This document shows, piece after piece, positions 1 through 11,574 of a stretch of 11,574 nucleotides of DNA (position 1 is its first letter; every line of letters begins with the position of its first letter). A program made the position numbers and the translations under genes. This DNA comes from Gloeobacterales cyanobacterium. Lineage in GTDB: Bacteria; Cyanobacteriota; Cyanobacteriia; Gloeobacterales; PMM-0068. A model generated the notes under the pieces. The model was not told the DNA's origin and searched no databases. It saw only the letters and a list, made by a program, of their open reading frames with translations. The stretch lies in assembly GCA_038245785.1 (NCBI GenBank), contig JBBRSB010000055.1, positions 1 through 11,574 on the forward strand, read 5' to 3'.

Positions 1-1773
1 CAGATCCTCCATTGCGCGAACTAAGTGCAGATGATCCTCATGGGTGCGGACGGCTAACCGAAAAAAGGCACCTTCGCCCTTAAAGCGACTAGAGACATCT
101 TTAATATAGATAGAGCGGTTGGTAAGGAGCGTTTCCGCCAGGGCTTGGGCAGAACTCCGGTTCAGATGCAGTTTGACGAGCAGAAAGTTACCACCACTGG
201 CAAACACCTTAGCGACAAAGGGTAGGGTCTCTAGCATCTCAGCAAATTGCACTCGATCTCTGGCTGTGGATTGGAACGAAGTAGCGATCGCTTCCCGATG
301 TTTGAGGATGATTTCCAGAAAATGTTCAGCAAGGGAGTTGAGATTCCAGATCGGAAGATGACGGTGCATGAAGAGATTAAACTCAGCATTCAAGGAGTAG
401 GTATAGCCGAGGCGAAGTCCTGGAACCCCAAGCGTTTTGCTCAGACTTTTAAGCAGAATGACATTGGCTAAGGGCCGCTCTTCTAGCAACACCATCACGC
501 TGGGCTGATCGGCAAAGTCAATAAACGATTCGTCTACTATCAGCCATTTCTCTGGATGGTTTTCGGCAAAGTTATAGATCCAGTCCGAGGGCAAGAGCGT
601 ACCGGTTGGATTATTGGGGTTTACGAAGACAATTACCTCGGCATCCTGTGCCAGGGGTAGAAATAGATCGAGATCGAAGCCGATTTCATCCCAGTATTCA
701 GATGCTGTCGGAAACATACGCTGATATTCGCCAAAGGTCGGGCAAGGAATCAGTACCCGTCGGCCTGCAAAAAACTGTTTTAACACCGGAAATGCTTGGG
801 AGGCCCCATTTAAAGCTATACAGCGTTCGGGTTGGCAGAGGAGATAGTACGAAAGTTTTCGATCGAGCAGGGTTTGCGTTGACCCATAGTTATGGAGGAG
901 AGATGGTAATGCATTCCGTAATTCTGAAAGAACACTTCCGGTCGGAAAGTACATATTGCGAAGAAAACAAAAGTCTAGAACTTCATAGTTCCAATAGCTC
1001 CCCTGCGAACGCTGGAGTGAAGAATAGCGTTGATCGGCTTCGAATGTATAGCGAGCGGAATCTAGATCATTGGGGTCGTCCAGCTCTGCCCAGCGCTCAT
1101 TCTGGAGAATGGCGGCATGGATCACCTCTTGTTGCATGGTAATAATAATGCCGAGGATTGCCTCGTAGTAACAGTTTGAATCGATTGCCTTGGCATAGTA
1201 GGTAATCAATCGTTTAAAGGAACCCGAACAAAATGCCTGAGAGAATTTATAGATATTCAGCGTTTTATATTTGTCCGCAAAATTAAAGTCAGATCCCTGC
1301 AGATGAGGCGGAATCACACTCCTAACGACGCCATCTACGACCGTGACAACCGTACCATCCATACCACTCCGATAGCGATCGAGGAGCGCAACATTGGGAT
1401 CGGGCGATGCAAATAATCTGTTAAATACCGATCGCTCAACGACTAAATCACTCTCAATCAACACAATATCGCCATCCATGGGCACTTGTTCCAGGGCTAA
1501 GGCCAGGGAATAGATGTTGTTGGTTTCCGCATAGCGATCGTTATGGACAAATAAGAAATCCAGGTCGGGATAAAGCTCAAGCGCATGCTGGCGGATTTCT
1601 TCAGCCCGATAGCCTGTGACGATTGCAACGTTTGTGACGCCGTGGGCAATCAACATATCAATTAATCGTCCTAGCAACGTGCGGTCGCCAATTTTCAGGA
1701 GTGATTTATGGGTTGTAAGCGTCAAGGGGCGCATGCGTCGCCCAATACCTGCTGCCAAGATAATTGCTCGCAT
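1..1773 (-). CDS. Bifunctional nucleotidyltransferase (LicC/phosphocholine cytidylyltransferase-like) plus class I/II PLP enzyme (CobD/HisC-like); 3' end lies just outside the window
   Basis: Translated by hand from ATG 1773, with no stop found before base 1. N-terminal NTP-transferase motifs: MRAIILAAGIGRRMRPLT..HKSLLKIG, YAETNNIYSL, IESDLV, WAELDDPNDL. PLP-domain motifs: PTFGEY, VNPNNPTG, VDESFIDF, KSLSKTLGVPGLRLGY (PLP lysine), PIWNLNS, FRLAVRT. Confidence 0.9.
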   Translation of the reverse strand, partial: MRAIILAAGIGRRMRPLTLTTHKSLLKIGDRTLLGRLIDMLIAHGVTNVAIVTGYRAEEIRQHALELYPDLDFLFVHNDRYAETNNIYSLALALEQVPMDGDIVLIESDLVVERSVFNRLFASPDPNVALLDRYRSGMDGTVVTVVDGVVRSVIPPHLQGSDFNFADKYKTLNIYKFSQAFCSGSFKRLITYYAKAIDSNCYYEAILGIIITMQQEVIHAAILQNERWAELDDPNDLDSARYTFEADQRYSSLQRSQGSYWNYEVLDFCFLRNMYFPTGSVLSELRNALPSLLHNYGSTQTLLDRKLSYYLLCQPERCIALNGASQAFPVLKQFFAGRRVLIPCPTFGEYQRMFPTASEYWDEIGFDLDLFLPLAQDAEVIVFVNPNNPTGTLLPSDWIYNFAENHPEKWLIVDESFIDFADQPSVMVLLEERPLANVILLKSLSKTLGVPGLRLGYTYSLNAEFNLFMHRHLPIWNLNSLAEHFLEIILKHREAIATSFQSTARDRVQFAEMLETLPFVAKVFASGGNFLLVKLHLNRSSAQALAETLLTNRSIYIKDVSSRFKGEGAFFRLAVRTHEDHLHLVRAMEDL

Positions 1774-1779
1774 CGGTAA

Positions 1780-2663
<884 letters not shown>

Positions 2664-2756: not shown

Positions 2757-3767
2757 ATGATGGCGATCATTCAATTAACTTCAGCTCCCTCTATGGATAG
2801 CGTGATATTTCCTAGAACGCGCACTTCACTGCGAGATCTAGCTGTCTGGATTAAAGAAGGAATTCTACTCGGCAATACTTTTCATTATCGCAAAAAGAAT
2901 CGCTGGATTCATAACTTCATTAATCTTTCCGTTCTAAGTTTAATTGGATTGGGCATTATCCAGTTGTCTTTACTTTCGGTAATTTTGCCGTTAGCAATTT
3001 ATTTGCCTATCGCTATTTTTTGCTTTGGAATTCTTCAGTTCATGCTGTTCATTCTCGTTGTGCATGAAGCCTCCCATAACATGTTTATCCTATCAAAAAG
3101 CAGCAAGCGATCGCTATTTTGGAATCGCCTGTTTGGATGGACTATCGCCACCTTTTATGGCTTGGAGTACGGTAAGCATTGGGAAGTCGGACACCAGGTG
3201 CATCACTATGACACGATCGAAGACAACGATCCTCAAAACTGCTCGAATACCATCTATTCGGGTCCAGCTTTGTTTGCCTATACCTTCAAAGTTTTATTAA
3301 TGCCTGGTTATTGCCAGTTTTTTCGTAAGTATGATCAGTGTGACGCACCCAAATATTATGGTCTGAATCCAACGTTACTGGCTGGACAAGTCATGCTCTG
3401 GGTATTATTTATTGCGGTTTCAATTTTGTATTTAAGTTGGGCAGTTCCGGTGGCCGTATTTTGGGGTATTCAAGTTGTTTCAGCCCTGAATCAATTCAAG
3501 ATTGCGATGGAGCATGGGGGTGAAATCGGTCGGCGCGAGCAGCCATTTTTGCGATCGTGCAGTTCCTTCTTTCCTTTGCGCTGGCTGTTGATGCCGTTGA
3601 ACATCTCGCTTCACTTCGAGCATCATCTTAATTATTGCGTTCCTTGGTACGATCTCATGAACTATCACCATGCATTAGAGAAAATTGTTCCCCGAGAAAT
3701 ACGCTCTCAAGTCTTCCATTATGACTTTGAAGTTTGGCAGCAAATCAACGAAAATAAACAGATATAG
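2757..3767 (+). CDS. Membrane fatty acid desaturase family protein
   Basis: Three His boxes (HEASH, HQVHH, HFEHH) and two long hydrophobic segments. The start could also be 2760 or the later Met (MDSVIF). Confidence 0.85.
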   Translation: MMAIIQLTSAPSMDSVIFPRTRTSLRDLAVWIKEGILLGNTFHYRKKNRWIHNFINLSVLSLIGLGIIQLSLLSVILPLAIYLPIAIFCFGILQFMLFILVVHEASHNMFILSKSSKRSLFWNRLFGWTIATFYGLEYGKHWEVGHQVHHYDTIEDNDPQNCSNTIYSGPALFAYTFKVLLMPGYCQFFRKYDQCDAPKYYGLNPTLLAGQVMLWVLFIAVSILYLSWAVPVAVFWGIQVVSALNQFKIAMEHGGEIGRREQPFLRSCSSFFPLRWLLMPLNISLHFEHHLNYCVPWYDLMNYHHALEKIVPREIRSQVFHYDFEVWQQINENKQI

Positions 3768-3778
3768 CGGTCAGCAAG

Positions 3779-3881
3779 ATAGCAGTCGCCAAGAACATGA
3801 GGACCTATGTGTCGGAGATGTTCCAACAGTTTAAACTCTCAACATGTAACGGTCTTAACAGCTCTGTCCATGGCTATAACT
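3779..3881. repeat. Degenerate ~100-bp repeat, copy 1 (MITE-like, decayed terminal inverted repeats)
   Basis: Aligns end to end with 4009-4107: ATAGCAGTCGCyAAGAACATkAGGA...ATGTAACGGTCTTA...TCTGTCCATkGCTAwAACT. Confidence 0.75.
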
Positions 3882-4008
3882 TTTTTTCTGCACCTGCTCA
3901 TGTTCTGAAACAATTTTCAAAATGTTCACAAGTGATACATTCTGAAACCTGCTCAGGGAGGGGGTTTAGTTTGTCGTCATAACGAAAAAACCTGTCGAAG
4001 TTATAAAT

Positions 4009-4107
4009 ATAGCAGTCGCTAAGAACATTAGGATCTATTTGTTGTGAGATATTCTGGCAGCTCAAGCACTTAAGATGTAACGGTCTTATCTGTCCATTGC
4101 TAAAACT
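4009..4107. repeat. Degenerate ~100-bp repeat, copy 2 (5-bp deletion relative to copy 1)
   Basis: Direct repeat of 3779-3881, starting 230 bp downstream of it. Confidence 0.75.
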
Positions 4108-5384: not shown

Positions 5385-5419
5385 AAAAAGAAAAAAGCTT
5401 GGTCTTACGGGACCAAGCT
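5385..5419 (-). terminator. Rho-independent terminator downstream of the APC permease
   Basis: Minus strand reads AGCTTGGTC-CCGTAA-GACCAAGCT followed by TTTTTCTTTTT, about 23 bp after the permease stop. Confidence 0.85.
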
Positions 5420-5442: not shown

Positions 5443-6876
5443 TCAAACTTTTCTAAGCTCTGTGAACTTAAGATCTATCGCTTCTAAGTCTCGTTCCATC
5501 TCCTCAACCATCTGAGGGGAACGACTGCGCAGAAAGAGAAACCAGCCTACGCCAATCGCCATATAGACCAAGAATAGGTAGGGAAAAACGTTGTAGGGAG
5601 CAGCAGGTACAGGATAAACACTGCCGACGACCGGAACCATCATGAAAAGAACGGCTAGAGCAGAAACAGCGATGTCCCAGGGCTTAAGACTACTTTCACG
5701 CTTGAGGTAGACCGGAGCCGCTACAGAAATCAAGATATAGCAGACCAAGAAACCATAGGTGGCAATCGTTCCGGTATAGCCATAAATATCAAGAACCTTG
5801 ATTCCAGCCAGCGATAGCAAGGCCGGAAGAGAGAAGACCATCAGGGCTGCAACCGTTGCGGCAATATGGGGCGTTTCATTGACGGTATGGGCGGACCCCA
5901 TAGAGTTGGGGAAAATGCCATGACGACTCATAGAGAACAAGACCCGTGAAGCAGCATTGATACTAGCGAGGGTACAGGCGAACAAACTGACCATAGCTGC
6001 GACAGAAATGACGACTCCGAGGAAGCCTGCTCCCGCAATAGAGGAGAGCACATTTAGAGGGGCTTCCGTTTTATCTAAAGTGGTTTTATAGCCTTGGAAT
6101 CCAAGCACCATCACATAGGACATAACAATGAAAAAAGAACCAGAAATGACCGTGCTCAAAATTACAGACCGAGGGATGAATTTGAGAGGCTCTTTCGCTT
6201 CATCGCCTAAAGCGGTAGCACTTTCAAATCCGACATAGCTAAAGACAGCCAGCACCAATCCCAAGCCTAAACCACTGGGGGTAACTCCTTGGAGCGTAAG
6301 CTGAGCCGTATCAACGGCGAAGTTCTTATTCGTGAGCACAAATGCCGCTAGGATTAGAATCAGTCCAACGGCCCCTGCTTCAATGCCCAGCATCAAGACG
6401 GTAGATAAGCGAATATCTTTATAGGCACAAAACCAGGCAGCGCTGATACAGACAAGAAGCAGCAAAATTGCGGGGGCTTGGATACCGACCAGCCCCAATA
6501 AGATATTGCCATAGTTGGCAAAACCAGAAGCTACGGCCATAGCGGTGAAGAGATAGCCGAGAACCAATCCCCACCCGGCAGTCACTCCAGCCATTGGTCC
6601 CAGTCCTCTAGAAGTGTAGGCATAGAGAGAACCAGGAGAAGCAGAACGTTGAGCAAACTGATTGATATTTAAACTCACAAAGACCAAGCCAATAGTCGCA
6701 ATTACATAGGCAAGCCAGCTACCGTTTCCCGTGCTGGCATAGACCAAGGCTAAGTTCACCGTTGGCGTGAGAGTCGGCGCAATATTAGCAATCGATTGGG
6801 CTAAGACTTCTGGAAAAGGAAGACATTGAGATCTAAGTCCAGATTTCGTAGGTTTAGGAGTTGTTGTAATAGTCAT
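5443..6876 (-). CDS. APC-family amino acid/amine permease
   Basis: About 12 hydrophobic segments, with LAQSIANIAPT in TM1, GSLYAY, FSYVGFESATALGDEAKEP in TM6, and SRVLFSMSRHG..P. Confidence 0.92.
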   Translation of the reverse strand: MTITTTPKPTKSGLRSQCLPFPEVLAQSIANIAPTLTPTVNLALVYASTGNGSWLAYVIATIGLVFVSLNINQFAQRSASPGSLYAYTSRGLGPMAGVTAGWGLVLGYLFTAMAVASGFANYGNILLGLVGIQAPAILLLLVCISAAWFCAYKDIRLSTVLMLGIEAGAVGLILILAAFVLTNKNFAVDTAQLTLQGVTPSGLGLGLVLAVFSYVGFESATALGDEAKEPLKFIPRSVILSTVISGSFFIVMSYVMVLGFQGYKTTLDKTEAPLNVLSSIAGAGFLGVVISVAAMVSLFACTLASINAASRVLFSMSRHGIFPNSMGSAHTVNETPHIAATVAALMVFSLPALLSLAGIKVLDIYGYTGTIATYGFLVCYILISVAAPVYLKRESSLKPWDIAVSALAVLFMMVPVVGSVYPVPAAPYNVFPYLFLVYMAIGVGWFLFLRSRSPQMVEEMERDLEAIDLKFTELRKV

Positions 6877-6900
6877 CGCTAAGCCCTTAGTAACGGGTAA

Positions 6901-6934
6901 AGAGGTAACCGCAGAAGCAAGCTGCGATTACTCT
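6901..6934 (-). other. Intergenic RNA hairpin between the amine oxidase and permease genes
   Basis: mRNA reads AGAGUAAUCGCAG-cuugcuu-CUGCGGUUACCUCU. It has one U-G wobble that pairs only on the minus strand and one bulge. Confidence 0.55.
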
Positions 6935-6971
6935 ATTTCACTTGTAATAACAAGCATGTAGCGAATGTTAC
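6930..6971 (-). promoter_or_regulatory. NtcA-type promoter of the permease: NtcA box 6958-6971, palindrome 6941-6954, -10 TAGAGT 6935-6930
   Basis: Minus strand reads GTAACATTCGCTAC ATG CTTGTTATTACAAG TGAAA TAGAGT, an exact match to GTA-N8-TAC-N22-TAN3T. Confidence 0.8.
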
Positions 6972-8911
6972 GAATGGCTATGGCAGTTGCTCTTTTTGTG
7001 CATAGAAGGAGGCACATCGGTGGCCGGACTGCTATCAAAAAAGCCTACGGGTTTGAGCATAAAACCGATATAGGCCGTAGGCATCACGGGCCAATCTTCT
7101 GGACGGGGAACATGGTGATGGCCAAAGGTGTACCAAACCACTACGTTGGTGTCTGTAATTGGGCGGTTGGCTTGGGTCCAAGCGGGTAATCCTTGGCCCC
7201 CAGGACTCTGGTTCGGATATTCTCCAGCGGGATAGCGCTCATCGGCACTGTAGGGGGTTGCCCAGAGGTGTTTGGTCATGAAACCTGCCCGCTTGAGCAC
7301 GCTGGATTCGGGATGGGCAAAGGGCAGAATATTCTCCCCAGGCATCAACTTATAAGCGACGGGTTGGCCGACCGCGTTAAGCACGGAAGGATTGACGATT
7401 TTCCAGTATCGGGCGGACATCGGATCAATCGTGCGCTGGGCTTGGGATTCTGTCGCTAAAAGAGTGGATTTCGCAAAAAAGGCATTGCCATGAGGATTTT
7501 CTGGCCCCATTGGTTCTGCTTCCGTATTCACTTCGTACACCGAGTTCTGCAGGCCCTCCACGCTCATATCCAAACGAACATTGAAGAAATGTTGGTGTAC
7601 TGGGGCATTGAGCTGAGGAGCAATGAGGGAGCCATACTTAGGCGTTTCACCGGGCATCATCGCTCCAGTATTGAGCATGCCCGTTAGTTTTACTTCGTAC
7701 TGGATCGTTCCATCCTGATAGAAGTACCAGAAAAAACCATACTCATAGTTGCCGACGGTAGAAACGAAGGAAACCACCAAGCGCCGAGAACGCCTCACTT
7801 CCGTCTGTTCTGTGCGCCAGTCCATATGCTTCCAGAGAATACCGTAGTCTTCTTCATGCATACAGACCGCATTTTCAATCGTCACAACCTGGCCGCGACT
7901 GTTCGTCATCACCGCATCAAAGTAGCGGATCACGCCCAGGCAATCGCATCCCAGTTTGAGGGAGTTTGCCAAGGTGCCAATGCCGTACTCCCCGACATCA
8001 AAGGCATTTTTGCGGAAGTGAAAGGGCCTGGGGTCACCATAGGGCACCACCATTTCTGCCAGAGAAGCGCGGTAGAGGATTGGGCGCAGGCGGCCCTGGT
8101 CTGCGTAGCCAATCGTATAGAGCACCAAACCTTCGCGGGGGGTGAAGCCAAGGCGAAACTGCCATTTTTGCCAGCGGACCTGATGGCCTTGCACCTCGAA
8201 GCTCGGACCTTCGGGCTGGACAATTTCTAGGGGTTGAACGTCTGTACGCAGGTCCTGGATAAATTCGGGGGTATAGTTCCCAGGATTGGGCGGCAGGGGC
8301 ACGACGCCATAGTCTTCGACCCTGAGCACCTGCATCGTATTCAGATCTACGACCGGGACCACGCCTTCAATCGGTCGCGCATAGCCATTGTCCGTAGGGC
8401 TAGAACGGACCCAGCAGAGGGCTCGGCTCAAACGCTTTCCCTCCTCATCCTCAAAACCAAAGTTTCCGGCAGACCAGGGGTCTACCATCACCAGGTCTGG
8501 ATTGGTAATGCCCCGTCGTTCCAGGGCAGCACGGAAGTCAGGATTGGCTTTGACAGCATTCTCACATTCAATAAATTCATCGAGCATGATTGGAGGCTGC
8601 ACCCCGTCCACTTTTTTCCAAGAGGTAACCGTACCGTCTGTCAGAGAAACAATCGCTTCGTAGGTGGTGGCTGTGGCGTTGTCCAAGAGAATGGCAAAAG
8701 CCTCGCGCTGGATAGCCTCTTCCTGTTCAAAATTTAGGACCACGGACTTTGGCGGCTCATGCAGGACGACGGTGGCAAAGCGCACGCGCCCACTAAGCGG
8801 ATAATCGGCCCGCAGAACACGTACCGCTCTGGCAATTTCTTCTGCCGTAAGCGGGTCAAGCGGATGCTGGGCTAAGGTCACGTTGGTGGGAGGAATGCGT
8901 ACGCTCGTCAT
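6968..8911 (-). CDS. tynA: Copper-containing (TPQ) primary amine oxidase
   Basis: TPQ consensus STVGNYEY, catalytic Asp in NAFDVGEYG, GCDCLG, Cu ligands HQH and HVPRPEDWPVMP, N-terminal HPLDPLT. No obvious signal peptide. Confidence 0.95.
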   Translation of the reverse strand: MTSVRIPPTNVTLAQHPLDPLTAEEIARAVRVLRADYPLSGRVRFATVVLHEPPKSVVLNFEQEEAIQREAFAILLDNATATTYEAIVSLTDGTVTSWKKVDGVQPPIMLDEFIECENAVKANPDFRAALERRGITNPDLVMVDPWSAGNFGFEDEEGKRLSRALCWVRSSPTDNGYARPIEGVVPVVDLNTMQVLRVEDYGVVPLPPNPGNYTPEFIQDLRTDVQPLEIVQPEGPSFEVQGHQVRWQKWQFRLGFTPREGLVLYTIGYADQGRLRPILYRASLAEMVVPYGDPRPFHFRKNAFDVGEYGIGTLANSLKLGCDCLGVIRYFDAVMTNSRGQVVTIENAVCMHEEDYGILWKHMDWRTEQTEVRRSRRLVVSFVSTVGNYEYGFFWYFYQDGTIQYEVKLTGMLNTGAMMPGETPKYGSLIAPQLNAPVHQHFFNVRLDMSVEGLQNSVYEVNTEAEPMGPENPHGNAFFAKSTLLATESQAQRTIDPMSARYWKIVNPSVLNAVGQPVAYKLMPGENILPFAHPESSVLKRAGFMTKHLWATPYSADERYPAGEYPNQSPGGQGLPAWTQANRPITDTNVVVWYTFGHHHVPRPEDWPVMPTAYIGFMLKPVGFFDSSPATDVPPSMHKKSNCHSHS

Positions 8912-8944
8912 CGATAGGCCCCTAAAGTGAGTACGGTAGGCTGC

Positions 8945-8986
8945 ATTCTCACCTTCCTGTCATAACAAGTTAGTAGAAAATGCTAC
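8945..8986 (-). promoter_or_regulatory. NtcA-type promoter of the amine oxidase: NtcA box 8973-8986, palindrome 8956-8969, weak -10 GAGAAT 8950-8945
   Basis: Minus strand reads GTAGCATTTTCTAC TAA CTTGTTATGACAGG AAGGT GAGAAT. Confidence 0.72.
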
Positions 8987-8999
8987 GGAATCTTAGCGA

Positions 9000-10328
9000 T
9001 TAACAGTTCAGGTAGTGTTCCATCTCCCAGGGCGTCACCTGGACATGATGTTGAGCCAATTCTTGATACTTCAAATCTAGATAGGTCTTCGCGCCCATCT
9101 CACTTAGCATCGCCATCAGCAGAGGGTCCTGCTCCAGGCAACGCAGGGCTTCTCCTAAACTGGTCGGCAGCGTTTGCAGGTCAGAAAATTCTGCGCCTCG
9201 GACAAACATATTTTCATCCAGCCGCTCACCCGGATGCAGGTGTTCTTTCATTCCTTCCAGACCCGCCGCCAGCATCCCTGCTTCTGCTAAGTAGAGATTG
9301 ACAGCACCATCGACCAAGCGGCACTCAAAGCGTCCCCCTTCTGGAATACGAATCATGTGCGTACGGTTGTTACCCCCGTAGGAGATATAGCGAGGGCTCC
9401 ACGTACTTCCAGAGTGCGTCATCGTCGCATCCAGCCGCTTATAGGAATTCACCGTCGGGCTACAGAGGGAAGTAAGTCCCCGCCCATGGGCCAAGAGACC
9501 GCCCAGGAATTCATAGGCCAGGGGTGAGAGGCCCATTTCATCGCTATCCTCGGCAAAAGCATTCTGCCCCCGCTTATCCCAAAGACTCATGTGCACATGC
9601 GCCCCATTGCCGGTCAGATGGCTAAAGGGTTTGGGCATGAAGGTGGCGGTCAGCCCCCGTTGCTCAGCCAGGGTTTTAACCATGTATTTGAAGAACACAT
9701 GGCGATCGGCGGTGACCAGAGCATCGTTGTAGGTCCAGTTGAGTTCAAACTGGCCGTTGGCATCTTCATGGTCGCACTGGTACGGCTCCCAACCCAGTTC
9801 TTCCATATAGCGGACTATGGTGGAAATGAAGTCAAACTGACGCATCAAATTCAGTTGGTCGTAGCAAGGACGGGCCGCCGTATCCAGTTCATCGGCCACC
9901 TGATAGCTCTGCCCCTGCTTCTTGACCAGCAGAAATTCGGCTTCTACTCCAGTTTTGTAGGCATAGCCCAGGGCTTCACAGCGACGAAGCACTTGTTTCA
10001 GCATCATCCGGGGCGCACTGGCAAAAGGTTTGCCTTCTAAATAAACTTCGCTGGCTACCCAGCCGACATTCGGTTGCCAGGGCAACACGATCAGGGAATT
10101 AGGGTCTGGTATGGCGGCAATATCAGGAGCATCTGGCCCCAGACCGAGATTGGAGGCAAAGGGAGCAAAAAAGGCACCAGCGGATTCAACGGCGCTGATT
10201 TTAGCGGCAGGAACCAACTTGGCACGAGTTCCACCTAAGAGATCGGTATAGGAAACAAGAAAAAAGTTAAGCTTTAGCTCCTTGGCCAACTCGGCCAGGG
10301 TACTGCCCTTGGTTAATGTGCTGACCAT
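9000..10328 (-). CDS. glnT: Type III glutamate--ammonia ligase family (GlnT / gamma-glutamylmethylamide synthetase GmaS-like)
   Basis: SYTDLLGGTRAKLVP, KTGVEAEFLL, PCYDQ, PYQCDHEDANGQFELNW, ALVTADRH.FFK, ATFMPKPF..LTGNG.H.H.S.W, NNRTHMIRIP, RFECRLVDG are characteristic of the GlnT/GmaS clade. Confidence 0.9.
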   Translation of the reverse strand: MVSTLTKGSTLAELAKELKLNFFLVSYTDLLGGTRAKLVPAAKISAVESAGAFFAPFASNLGLGPDAPDIAAIPDPNSLIVLPWQPNVGWVASEVYLEGKPFASAPRMMLKQVLRRCEALGYAYKTGVEAEFLLVKKQGQSYQVADELDTAARPCYDQLNLMRQFDFISTIVRYMEELGWEPYQCDHEDANGQFELNWTYNDALVTADRHVFFKYMVKTLAEQRGLTATFMPKPFSHLTGNGAHVHMSLWDKRGQNAFAEDSDEMGLSPLAYEFLGGLLAHGRGLTSLCSPTVNSYKRLDATMTHSGSTWSPRYISYGGNNRTHMIRIPEGGRFECRLVDGAVNLYLAEAGMLAAGLEGMKEHLHPGERLDENMFVRGAEFSDLQTLPTSLGEALRCLEQDPLLMAMLSEMGAKTYLDLKYQELAQHHVQVTPWEMEHYLNC

Positions 10329-10362: not shown

Positions 10363-10404
10363 AGTAAACCAAGCTTGTTATGACGAGTTTGTATCTAGAG
10401 ATAC
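10363..10404 (-). promoter_or_regulatory. NtcA-type promoter of glnT/gmaS: NtcA box 10391-10404, palindrome 10374-10387, weak -10 TTTACT 10368-10363
   Basis: Minus strand reads GTATCTCTAGATAC AAA CTCGTCATAACAAG CTTGG TTTACT. Confidence 0.72.
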
Positions 10405-10443
10405 GGGGGAGGCATATTGGAAAGAAGTATGGAGCAACCAGCC

Positions 10444-11424
10444 ATGGAAAAGCGACAGTTAGGCAAAGGCGGTCCATCGGTTTCCGCAATTGGACTGGGA
10501 TGTATGGGTATGTCGGATTTCTATGGTCCAGCAGATGACCAGGAGAGCATTGCGACAGTCAAAGCAGCGTTGGAAGAGGGAGTTACCTTTCTGGATACAG
10601 GGGATTTCTACGGCATGGGGCACAATGAGATGCTGCTGCGCGAGGCCCTAGGAGGACAGCGTGAGCAAGCATTTCTGTCTGTCAAGTTTGGTGCTCAACG
10701 TACCCCTAAGGGCGAGTTCATTGGCTTTGATGGACGACCCGCCGCTGTCAAGACCTCTCTGGCCTACAGTTTGCAGCGTCTAGGCACAGACTATATCGAT
10801 CTCTACCAGCCAGCCCGCATCGATCCGACGGTACCGATTGAAGAAACGATTGGGGCGATTGCTGAGATGGTTCAAGCAGGCTACGTCCGCCATATCGGCC
10901 TATCGGAAGCGTCTGTCCAGACTATTCGCCGTGCCCATGCGGTTCATCCAATTACGGCGTTGCAAATTGAGTACTCGCTGCTCTCCCGTGACATCGAGGC
11001 AGAGGTCTTACCGACCCTTCGCGAGTTGGGCATTGGCCTTGTCGCCTATGGAGTTCTCTCCCGTGGTTTGCTGAGTGATAGAAGCCATACTAACCCCGCT
11101 GCTGGAGACTTTCGGGCTTATCTGCCACGTTTTGCCGGGGATAACCTGAAGTCTAATCTGGCCCTGGTAGACGCGCTCAGGTCATTAGCGACCCAGAAGG
11201 GGGTAACTGTTGCCCAGATTGCCATTGCCTGGGTACTTGCCCGTGGAGAAGATATTGTGCCCCTAGTCGGTGCCCGTAAACGAGAGCGCCTGAGCGAGTC
11301 CCTGGCTGCTACCCAGATTCATCTGACCCCAGAGGAGATGACCCAAATCGAGGCTACCGTATCCCCGACAGCAGTGGCCGGAACACGCTACAGTGCAGAA
11401 CAGATGGCCATGCTGGATGGTTGA
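10444..11424 (+). CDS. Aldo/keto reductase
   Basis: [73 protein letters not shown] 10444 has GGAG upstream; alternative starts are 10429 and 10417. Confidence 0.92.
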
Positions 11425-11447
11425 GAGATCCCCCTCCTGAGTCTTGA

Positions 11448-11487
11448 ACCCCTCAGGCCCTACGGGCCAGCTCCCCTTAAGGGGAGC
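11448..11487. repeat. REP-like double hairpin downstream of the aldo/keto reductase
   Basis: ACCCCTCA, then GGCCC-TAC-GGGCC (11456-11468), A, then the perfect 18-bp palindrome GCTCCCCTTAAGGGGAGC (11470-11487). Confidence 0.65.
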
Positions 11488-11574
11488 CTCCTCTGGGGGC
11501 AGAAAGATAGTTTGGATTTGGGTGCAAACACTACCCAAGCGATAGTCCACGCTATCTACTGCTTGGATGCCTAA

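Follow-up and report, generated by a model that had tools for sequence, protein, structure and literature searches.

The 11,574-nt stretch analyzed here, hereafter the window, is contig JBBRSB010000055.1 (C55 in our analysis) from the genome of a Gloeobacterales cyanobacterium (G000; completeness 98%). An earlier note on this DNA had described three co-oriented genes for a GmaS-like ligase, a copper amine oxidase (CAO) and an APC permease, and had proposed that they scavenge amine nitrogen in a cyanobacterium. An open reading frame (ORF) check recovered the three genes where they had been placed, all on the minus strand; family profiles support their identities, and the cyanobacterial host is supported by psaA and psaB and by an NtcA above its family cut-off. 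Here we relate these genes to a predicted methylamine-nitrogen regulon. The genes are:

9000–10328, minus strand: gmaS/glnT, γ-glutamylmethylamide synthetase-type ligase of cyanobacterial clade A (442 aa; TIGR03105, 7CQL match, residues, tree)
6968–8911, minus strand: copper/topaquinone (TPQ) amine oxidase (647 aa; family profiles, Pfam domains, catalytic residues)
5443–6876, minus strand: APC-family permease, probable amine importer (477 aa; Pfam AA_permease; orthologues after CAO in genomes G057 and G238)

Identity of the ligase, oxidase and permease

The ligase scored 587 bits against the TIGR03105 glnT profile (cut-off 469.6) and stayed below the cut-offs for GlnA (type I glutamine synthetase, GSI; 286 against 429) and for γ-glutamylputrescine synthetase (NF045547; 234 against 650). 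Its best match in the PDB was 7CQL (518 bits), followed by 9QUR, a ‘glutamate-methylamine ligase’ (352), with true glutamine synthetases (GSs) at or below 232. Judging from length and residue numbering, 7CQL appears to be the RhGmaS enzyme of PMC7948447, and the residues named there were transferred by hand through the 7CQL alignment, allowing for a 20-residue tag offset, and then checked. All 23 residues that the accessible part of that paper names for binding ATP, Mg, glutamate and methylamine are kept, and Ala and Trp stand at the positions of the GS ammonia-binding Asp (Asp50′) and flap Glu. The ligase is 50% identical to proteobacterial GmaS, compared to 30% for GlnA of the same genome and 29% for PuuA, whose amine pocket also differs. 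In a tree of 31 rows (four redundant rows dropped; long outgroup branches), the ligase fell within cyanobacterial clade A (support 100/99), sister to clade B plus three proteobacterial GmaS sequences; the joint branch (100/97) stands apart from GlnA and PuuA, and the placement agrees with the earlier note’s assignment. The ligase is thus GmaS-type by family membership, and its activity on methylamine is predicted from that membership. A second GmaS-like gene (about 40%) lies at G000:C92:378-3438, cut at the contig end and behind two solute-binding proteins.

The oxidase exceeded the primary-amine oxidase profile NF008559 (1017 against 651), and the Pfam N2, N3 and catalytic domains are all present. 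Its catalytic set is complete, comprising the N-Y-D/E-Y motif, the base Asp305, the TPQ precursor Tyr389 and the copper ligands His439, His441 and His600; no signal peptide is visible in the sequence, and the enzyme is predicted to be cytoplasmic. Channel residues are Trp146, Ala303 and Tyr309. The base loop, with Ala two positions before the Asp and Tyr four positions after it, follows the pattern of yeast methylamine oxidase (HPAO-1, 1A2V), unlike that of the Tyr-gated phenylethylamine oxidase and the Cys-bearing 3LOY; these Ala, Asp and Tyr residues may indicate a preference for small amines. At the HPAO-1 Trp position, the Trp146 region could not be aligned to the yeast enzyme.

The permease passed the Pfam AA_permease cut-off and reached no specific NCBIfam family in the profile search. 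Its orthologues follow CAO in G057 (64% identity) and G238 (62%; CAO-APC).

Promoter architecture and partner genes on a second contig

An NtcA-type box stands before each window gene separately, with the same palindrome 3 nt beyond it in every case:

10391–10404: NtcA-type box GTA-N8-TAC upstream of gmaS
10374–10387: palindromic operator CTTGTnATnACAAG upstream of gmaS, 3 nt past the NtcA box (matrix rank 3)
10363–10368, minus strand: hexamer TTTACT, 22 nt past the NtcA box, probable non-canonical −10
8973–8986: NtcA-type box upstream of the oxidase gene
8956–8969: operator upstream of the oxidase gene (matrix rank 1)
6958–6971: NtcA-type box upstream of the permease gene, overlapping the oxidase stop codon
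6941–6954: operator upstream of the permease gene (matrix rank 7; −10 TAGAGT at 6935–6930)

We take GTA-N8-TAC with a −10 box 22–23 nt downstream to be the consensus of an NtcA-activated promoter. The −10 is canonical for the permease only (TAGAGT), with TTTACT and GAGAAT each off by one position. Relatives were sampled as 80 gmaS loci and 251 cyanobacterial genomes of the class; these genomes are kin, and tallies from them are descriptive rather than independent tests. Of 62 related gmaS promoters, 52 have TTTACT at the spacing seen here. An NtcA-type box is found upstream of 58 of 74 gmaS genes in relatives, compared to 55 of 770 other ORFs; together with the box at each window gene, this supports the proposal of amine-nitrogen scavenging. 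The genome holds 699 such boxes; the composite of box and palindrome (at most one mismatch) occurs at three of them, the next best having four mismatches. An unseeded dyad search returned the NtcA-type dyad GTAT-N6-ATAC first (29/108 versus 10/770) and the dyad of the palindrome, TTGT-N4-ACAA, second (22/108 versus 9/770).

The same palindrome lies upstream of mgsA and of a gntR/flavoprotein pair on contig C35, which carries:

C35:7172-6198: mgsA, 37% identity to Aminobacter MgsA (GATase, GXGXG and Glu_synthase domains across mgsABC)
C35:6201-5470: mgsB, 40% identity to Aminobacter MgsB
C35:5497-4181: mgsC, 63% identity to Aminobacter MgsC
C35:8063-7326: GntR-family (GntR/UTRA) regulator
C35:8272-9477: stand-alone 401-aa flavin adenine dinucleotide (FAD) enzyme, sarcosine-oxidase-like, divergent from gntR

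The earlier note’s remark that mgs and mgd genes are missing holds within the window; genome-wide, mgsABC is present and mgdABCD was not found. A ligase orphaned from Mgs, which we had considered, is ruled out by mgsABC on C35. An operator matrix built from 55 sites of relatives and scanned over 5.0 million positions ranked the oxidase site 1, mgsA 2, gmaS 3, gntR/flavoprotein 5 and the permease 7, with unrelated sites at 4 and 6; the three window sites seeded the matrix, so their ranks are partly circular and only the C35 ranks are independent. A weaker operator (rank 23) stands at G000:C35:9591, upstream of a SomB-type porin gene adjoining the flavoprotein gene.

Among relatives, the palindrome lies ahead of gmaS-like genes (18/86), the flavoprotein (5/8), gntR (5/10) and mgsA (3/4), compared to 16 of 689 other ORFs; in those loci it was not found before CAO (0/3) or APC (0/2). 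The composite also stands before CAO in G088, G221, G155 and G081, all with close mgsC, giving 5 of 30 CAO loci with the window’s included. From the gntR-adjacent sites (5 of 10 loci) and from co-occurrence, the GntR/UTRA regulator is predicted to act on the palindrome; close mgsC is present in each of the 12 genomes whose GntR is most similar.

In G057, the operator, mgsA, mgsB, mgsC, gmaS, CAO, APC and an Amt-like gene form one co-oriented run. Among the 80 gmaS loci, mgsABC occurs in 4, GntR in 9, CAO within 10 kb in 5, the permease in 2 and a flavoprotein orthologue (60–70% identity) in 8, a ninth flavoprotein match (23%) having been dropped. A gmaS-like match was present in 110 of the 251 genomes, 38 of clade A and 72 at 49–55%. 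Close mgsC (at least 83%) occurs in 17 genomes, all with clade-A gmaS; the flavoprotein occurs in 12, all among those 17 and hence all with clade-A gmaS; and CAO at 58% or more occurs in 70, 16 of them among those with close mgsC.

MgdABCD was not found in this 98%-complete genome: there was no full-length soxA-like match and no delta or gamma match, the MgdC query matched a GcvT-like gene only, and MgdB and MgdD gave no match. Alpha, gamma and delta sarcosine oxidase subunits were likewise not found in the genome. The C35 flavoprotein falls below all soxB and monomeric sarcosine oxidase (MSOX) cut-offs. Its structural model (predicted local distance difference test, pLDDT, 94) has a template modeling (TM) score of 0.86 to 1Y56_B and 1VRQ_B, the beta fold of L-proline dehydrogenase and sarcosine oxidase; identity to proteins of these types is 20–26%. 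Its own clade is tight, with identities of 60–95% before a fall to about 40%. This single flavoprotein probably ends the N-methylglutamate route in place of MgdABCD.

Other arrangements of these genes were seen among relatives. Clade B (L168–L179, L117, L118), the commoner second GmaS-like clade with 72 of the 251 genomes, mostly lacks mgsC; its neighbors in 7 of 11 regions, and on both plasmids, are a PRK07581 alpha/beta hydrolase, a desaturase-like di-iron protein or both, and it once stands with GntR and the same operator (L173:4875). Loci L044–L094 pair a clade-A ligase with iron-dependent alcohol dehydrogenase (Fe-ADH), aldehyde dehydrogenase (ALDH), class-I amidotransferase, a second GS-like protein, an Amt-like protein and 151-aa unknown proteins; the operator there also precedes a 500-aa GS-like gene, a solute-binding protein and a PhyH dioxygenase, and the regulon is therefore wider elsewhere. 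L176 (G024:C74:220000-239999) is a cyanobacterial cluster of sarcosine-oxidase-like (mgd-type) genes, gmaS and mgsABC, and its mgsC type (67–71%) occurs in 21 of the 251 genomes. At L155:6620-7412, on the same contig as L045, a frameshift splits gntR and the operator sites are kept.

Proposed pathway and competing explanations

We consider it likely, reasoning from sequence comparison, that these genes form a regulon controlled by nitrogen starvation and by substrate, serving methylamine and other small primary amines through the N-methylglutamate route plus parallel CAO deamination; the window genes are probably the uptake-and-entry module of this split gene set. Under nitrogen shortage, NtcA would activate each promoter, and the C35 GntR/UTRA repressor would sit over the −35 region and be released by an effector derived from the amine, perhaps the γ-glutamyl amide. 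The APC permease would import the amine, and GmaS, on the strength of its family, would convert methylamine to γ-glutamylmethylamide. MgsABC converts γ-glutamylmethylamide to N-methylglutamate with release of ammonium, and homology and gene order point to this step for the C35 proteins. The stand-alone FAD enzyme would then yield glutamate and formaldehyde from N-methylglutamate, replacing MgdABCD. In parallel, CAO would turn free amine into aldehyde, ammonia and H2O2 at no cost of ATP and would widen the range to other small amines. Formaldehyde could be cleared by FrmA and FrmB, both over their cut-offs (632 against 544; 476 against 282), and H2O2 by a 749-aa two-domain catalase-peroxidase-like protein; all three genes are unlinked to the module. 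GlnA would assimilate the ammonium. A urea carboxylase cluster lies at G000:C2:110633-120728, with frmA/frmB a few kb off.

A more specific version, which we put forward tentatively and at somewhat less than even odds, is an undescribed cyanobacterial methylamine-nitrogen regulon with GntR-gated NtcA activation, a new single-subunit N-methylglutamate oxidase that frees formaldehyde, and a co-regulated copper methylamine oxidase as a second, ATP-free route.

Several observations weigh against the proposed regulon, besides the circularity of the window-site ranks. The C35 operator sites have no NtcA box, the closest GntR of G057 is only 52% identical, and none reached the threshold in G069. In other genomes gmaS rarely adjoins CAO directly (0 of 80 loci; 1 of 37 other clade-A genomes). 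The C35 flavoprotein shares only 22% identity with Aminobacter MgdA and had no match in 5 of the 17 genomes with close mgsC, and no formate sink was found in the genome, neither a formate-tetrahydrofolate ligase nor an NAD formate dehydrogenase passing. Clade-A ligases adjoining Fe-ADH (31/80) and ALDH (25/80) have a near-identical pocket, and 15 of 38 clade-A genomes have no mgsC match; because of both, the ligase is not methylamine-exclusive. As for the oxidase, its full-length score is 565 bits to phenylethylamine oxidase compared to 418 to yeast methylamine oxidase, 40 of the 213 genomes that lack clade-A gmaS hold a close CAO, and 25 of 30 CAO loci have no operator; the last two counts indicate that CAO has other uses.

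Phenylethylamine oxidase is the best match of CAO among solved structures, and this match and the close CAOs in genomes lacking clade-A gmaS favor a regulon of the same composition in which CAO and the permease serve another amine (ethylamine, ethanolamine, aminoacetone, some aromatic amine, or a diamine carrying an N-methyl group and later yielding methylamine) and methylamine is used by GmaS-MgsABC only. This arrangement, which we judge unlikely, would also suit the separate promoter of each gene and the broad CAO substrate range, decided by channel shape, that is described in the available portion of PMC3382800. Two lines of evidence speak against it: i) the base loop fits yeast methylamine oxidase and not phenylethylamine oxidase or 3LOY, on our understanding of what those residues mean, and ii) when the 30 closest CAOs of cyanobacteria are sorted by subtype, clade-A gmaS accompanies the Tyr form in 21 of 23 genomes and the His form in 1 of 7. 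It is very improbable that the ligase acts mainly on an amino alcohol or longer alkylamine, with the amide oxidized and hydrolyzed in a GlnA4/Ipu-like manner and mgsABC a side branch. The Fe-ADH and ALDH neighbors of clade-A loci, and the class-I amidotransferase held by 23 of 80, favor such a role, as does the use of ethylamine by RhGmaS (Km 58 µM; PMC7948447, accessible part); in this genome, however, those partners have no orthologues (best Fe-ADH 29%, best ALDH 38%, amidotransferase no match), and no such gene is among the top operator sites.

Slimmer still is the chance of a Puu-like scheme, offered by the earlier note as its alternative, in which the ligase would glutamylate one end of a diamine and CAO would oxidize the other. 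The three genes do adjoin, and unlinked PuuD-like (33%) and PuuC/PuuE-like (36–40%) genes exist in the genome, but the ligase’s low identity to PuuA, its different pocket and its score below the NF045547 cut-off argue otherwise; no PuuB match was found in the genome, the PuuD-like gene lies outside the top 40 operator sites, and mgsABC is co-regulated. Least probable of all is that the pathway stops at the γ-glutamyl amide, kept as a store or made to detoxify the amine, or that the ligase is a spare GS. The clade-A genomes without an mgsC match would allow for it, and RhGmaS can use ammonium, though at a Km of 8.7 mM (PMC7948447, accessible part); against it, mgsABC is present and carries the operator, GlnA and a 729-aa GS are already encoded separately in the same genome, and the GS ammonia-binding residues are replaced in the ligase. 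The earlier note, with no mgs genes in the window, had inferred trapping, storage or detoxification as one of two fates, and this inference falls with the discovery of mgsABC on C35 under the same operator. Since mgsABC also stands directly upstream of the three genes in G057, the γ-glutamyl amide is most likely an intermediate and not a store, as the favored methylamine regulon would have it.

Known systems, origin and remaining features

In the N-methylglutamate pathway (gmaS-mgsABC-mgdABCD) of Rhodovulum, Ruegeria, Aminobacter and Methylobacterium, the full GmaS catalytic set and the mgsABC order are the same as here. The present module differs in its cyanobacterial host, a separate ligase clade (50%), genes spread over two contigs, the addition of CAO and an APC permease, and one 401-aa flavoprotein where mgdABCD was not found; it is a variant of that pathway because the MgdABCD feature is lacking. 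According to the accessible text of PMC5023228, non-methylotrophs use this pathway for nitrogen. In Ruegeria it is run by TmaR, an AraC-type activator responding to a methylamine catabolite (PMC13390433, text available in part), in contrast to the NtcA and GntR/UTRA control predicted here. Direct methylamine oxidation by CAO (Arthrobacter; yeast HPAO-1) relies on the same Cu/TPQ catalytic residues, in HPAO-1 with a like base loop, and is stated in the accessible part of PMC7948447 to be confined to methylotrophs; here the host is a phototroph, and CAO would share its control with the glutamate route. Sarcosine oxidase beta, L-proline dehydrogenase beta and monomeric sarcosine oxidase oxidize N-alkyl amino acids and share the fold of the C35 flavoprotein, which differs in its low identity, its own tight clade and partner subunits that were not found. 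The Puu pathway of E. coli and GlnA4 ethanolamine glutamylation in Streptomyces likewise place amine γ-glutamylation beside a permease and an oxidizing enzyme; here, the ligase is GmaS-type and not PuuA, with no linked hydrolase or aldehyde dehydrogenase and no PuuB match.

Methylamine has long been treated in cyanobacteria as a supposedly non-metabolized ammonium analogue, and its use has so far been credited to heterotrophs and methylotrophs. The literature searched held no description of such a system in cyanobacteria, although an earlier mention could exist in subscription journals, in supplements or in the older physiology literature; a Trichodesmium study, in its accessible part, reports only possible Tmm and GmaS homologues and credits associated bacteria (10.1101/2021.03.10.434842). 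If the proposal is true, some cyanobacteria are direct competitors for nitrogen from methylamine; of the 251 genomes sampled, 17 carry close mgsC together with a clade-A ligase. The analysis also yields a candidate for an N-methylglutamate oxidase made of one protein, along with a predicted operator and a predicted regulator. Cultured carriers include Iningainema tapete BLCC-T55, Oculatella sp. LEGE 06141 and Pleurocapsales LEGE 10410.

Clade-A gmaS, mgsC, the flavoprotein and GntR had no match in 13 same-order genomes, which suggests that the module was acquired by transfer from other cyanobacteria. A contaminant contig is unlikely, given the 98–100% copies of the end repeat on other contigs and the tetranucleotide fit of C35 to the genome (r 0.95), but the 6-kb cassette is atypical (0.67, below the 5th percentile of 0.72). 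No kaiC match was found in the source genome; kaiC is likewise not known from the earliest-branching cyanobacteria. The repeat at the contig end (window 11434–11574) has 98–100% copies on C35, C38, C24 and C6, and the same dispersed, hairpin-bearing repeat lies at G000:C35:3636-3799 and 49657-49797. A degenerate copy just downstream of mgsC may have aided the split of the gene set. Joining C55 to C35 through the shared terminal repeat is ruled out, as the repeat has an identical orientation at the ends of both contigs.

Further features of the window are:

5396–5419, minus strand: intrinsic-terminator-like hairpin with U-run (9-bp stem, 24 nt past the permease stop)
6905–6931, minus strand: GC-rich hairpin in the oxidase–permease gap, where the oxidase transcript may have its 3′ end
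10417–11424, plus strand: aldo/keto reductase gene divergent from gmaS, a doubtful member and possible aldehyde sink

The strong terminator of the earlier note stands insofar as the hairpin at 5419–5396 tops the local list; as a class, terminator-like sites are not enriched in the window (12 observed, 11.7 expected). An aldo/keto reductase orthologue (69%) lies within a gmaS cluster in one of 80 loci (L045). A HAD hydrolase was ruled out as a module member, lying beyond the terminator and having no match in the 80 gmaS loci.

At the far end of the window, a nucleotidyltransferase fused to a CobD/HisC-like aminotransferase (1–1773, minus strand) is open at the contig end. It is preceded by an acyltransferase (1780–2529, minus strand) whose N-terminal 40 residues look like part of a fatty acyl-AMP ligase. 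An AT-rich fatty-acid-desaturase-family gene (2757–3767, plus strand) is no orthologue of the regulon’s desaturase-like protein, to which it gave no match. Beyond it, a stretch of ~105 bp occurs twice in AT-rich intergenic DNA (3776–3881 and 4006–4107; 78% identical), with related sequence on C54.

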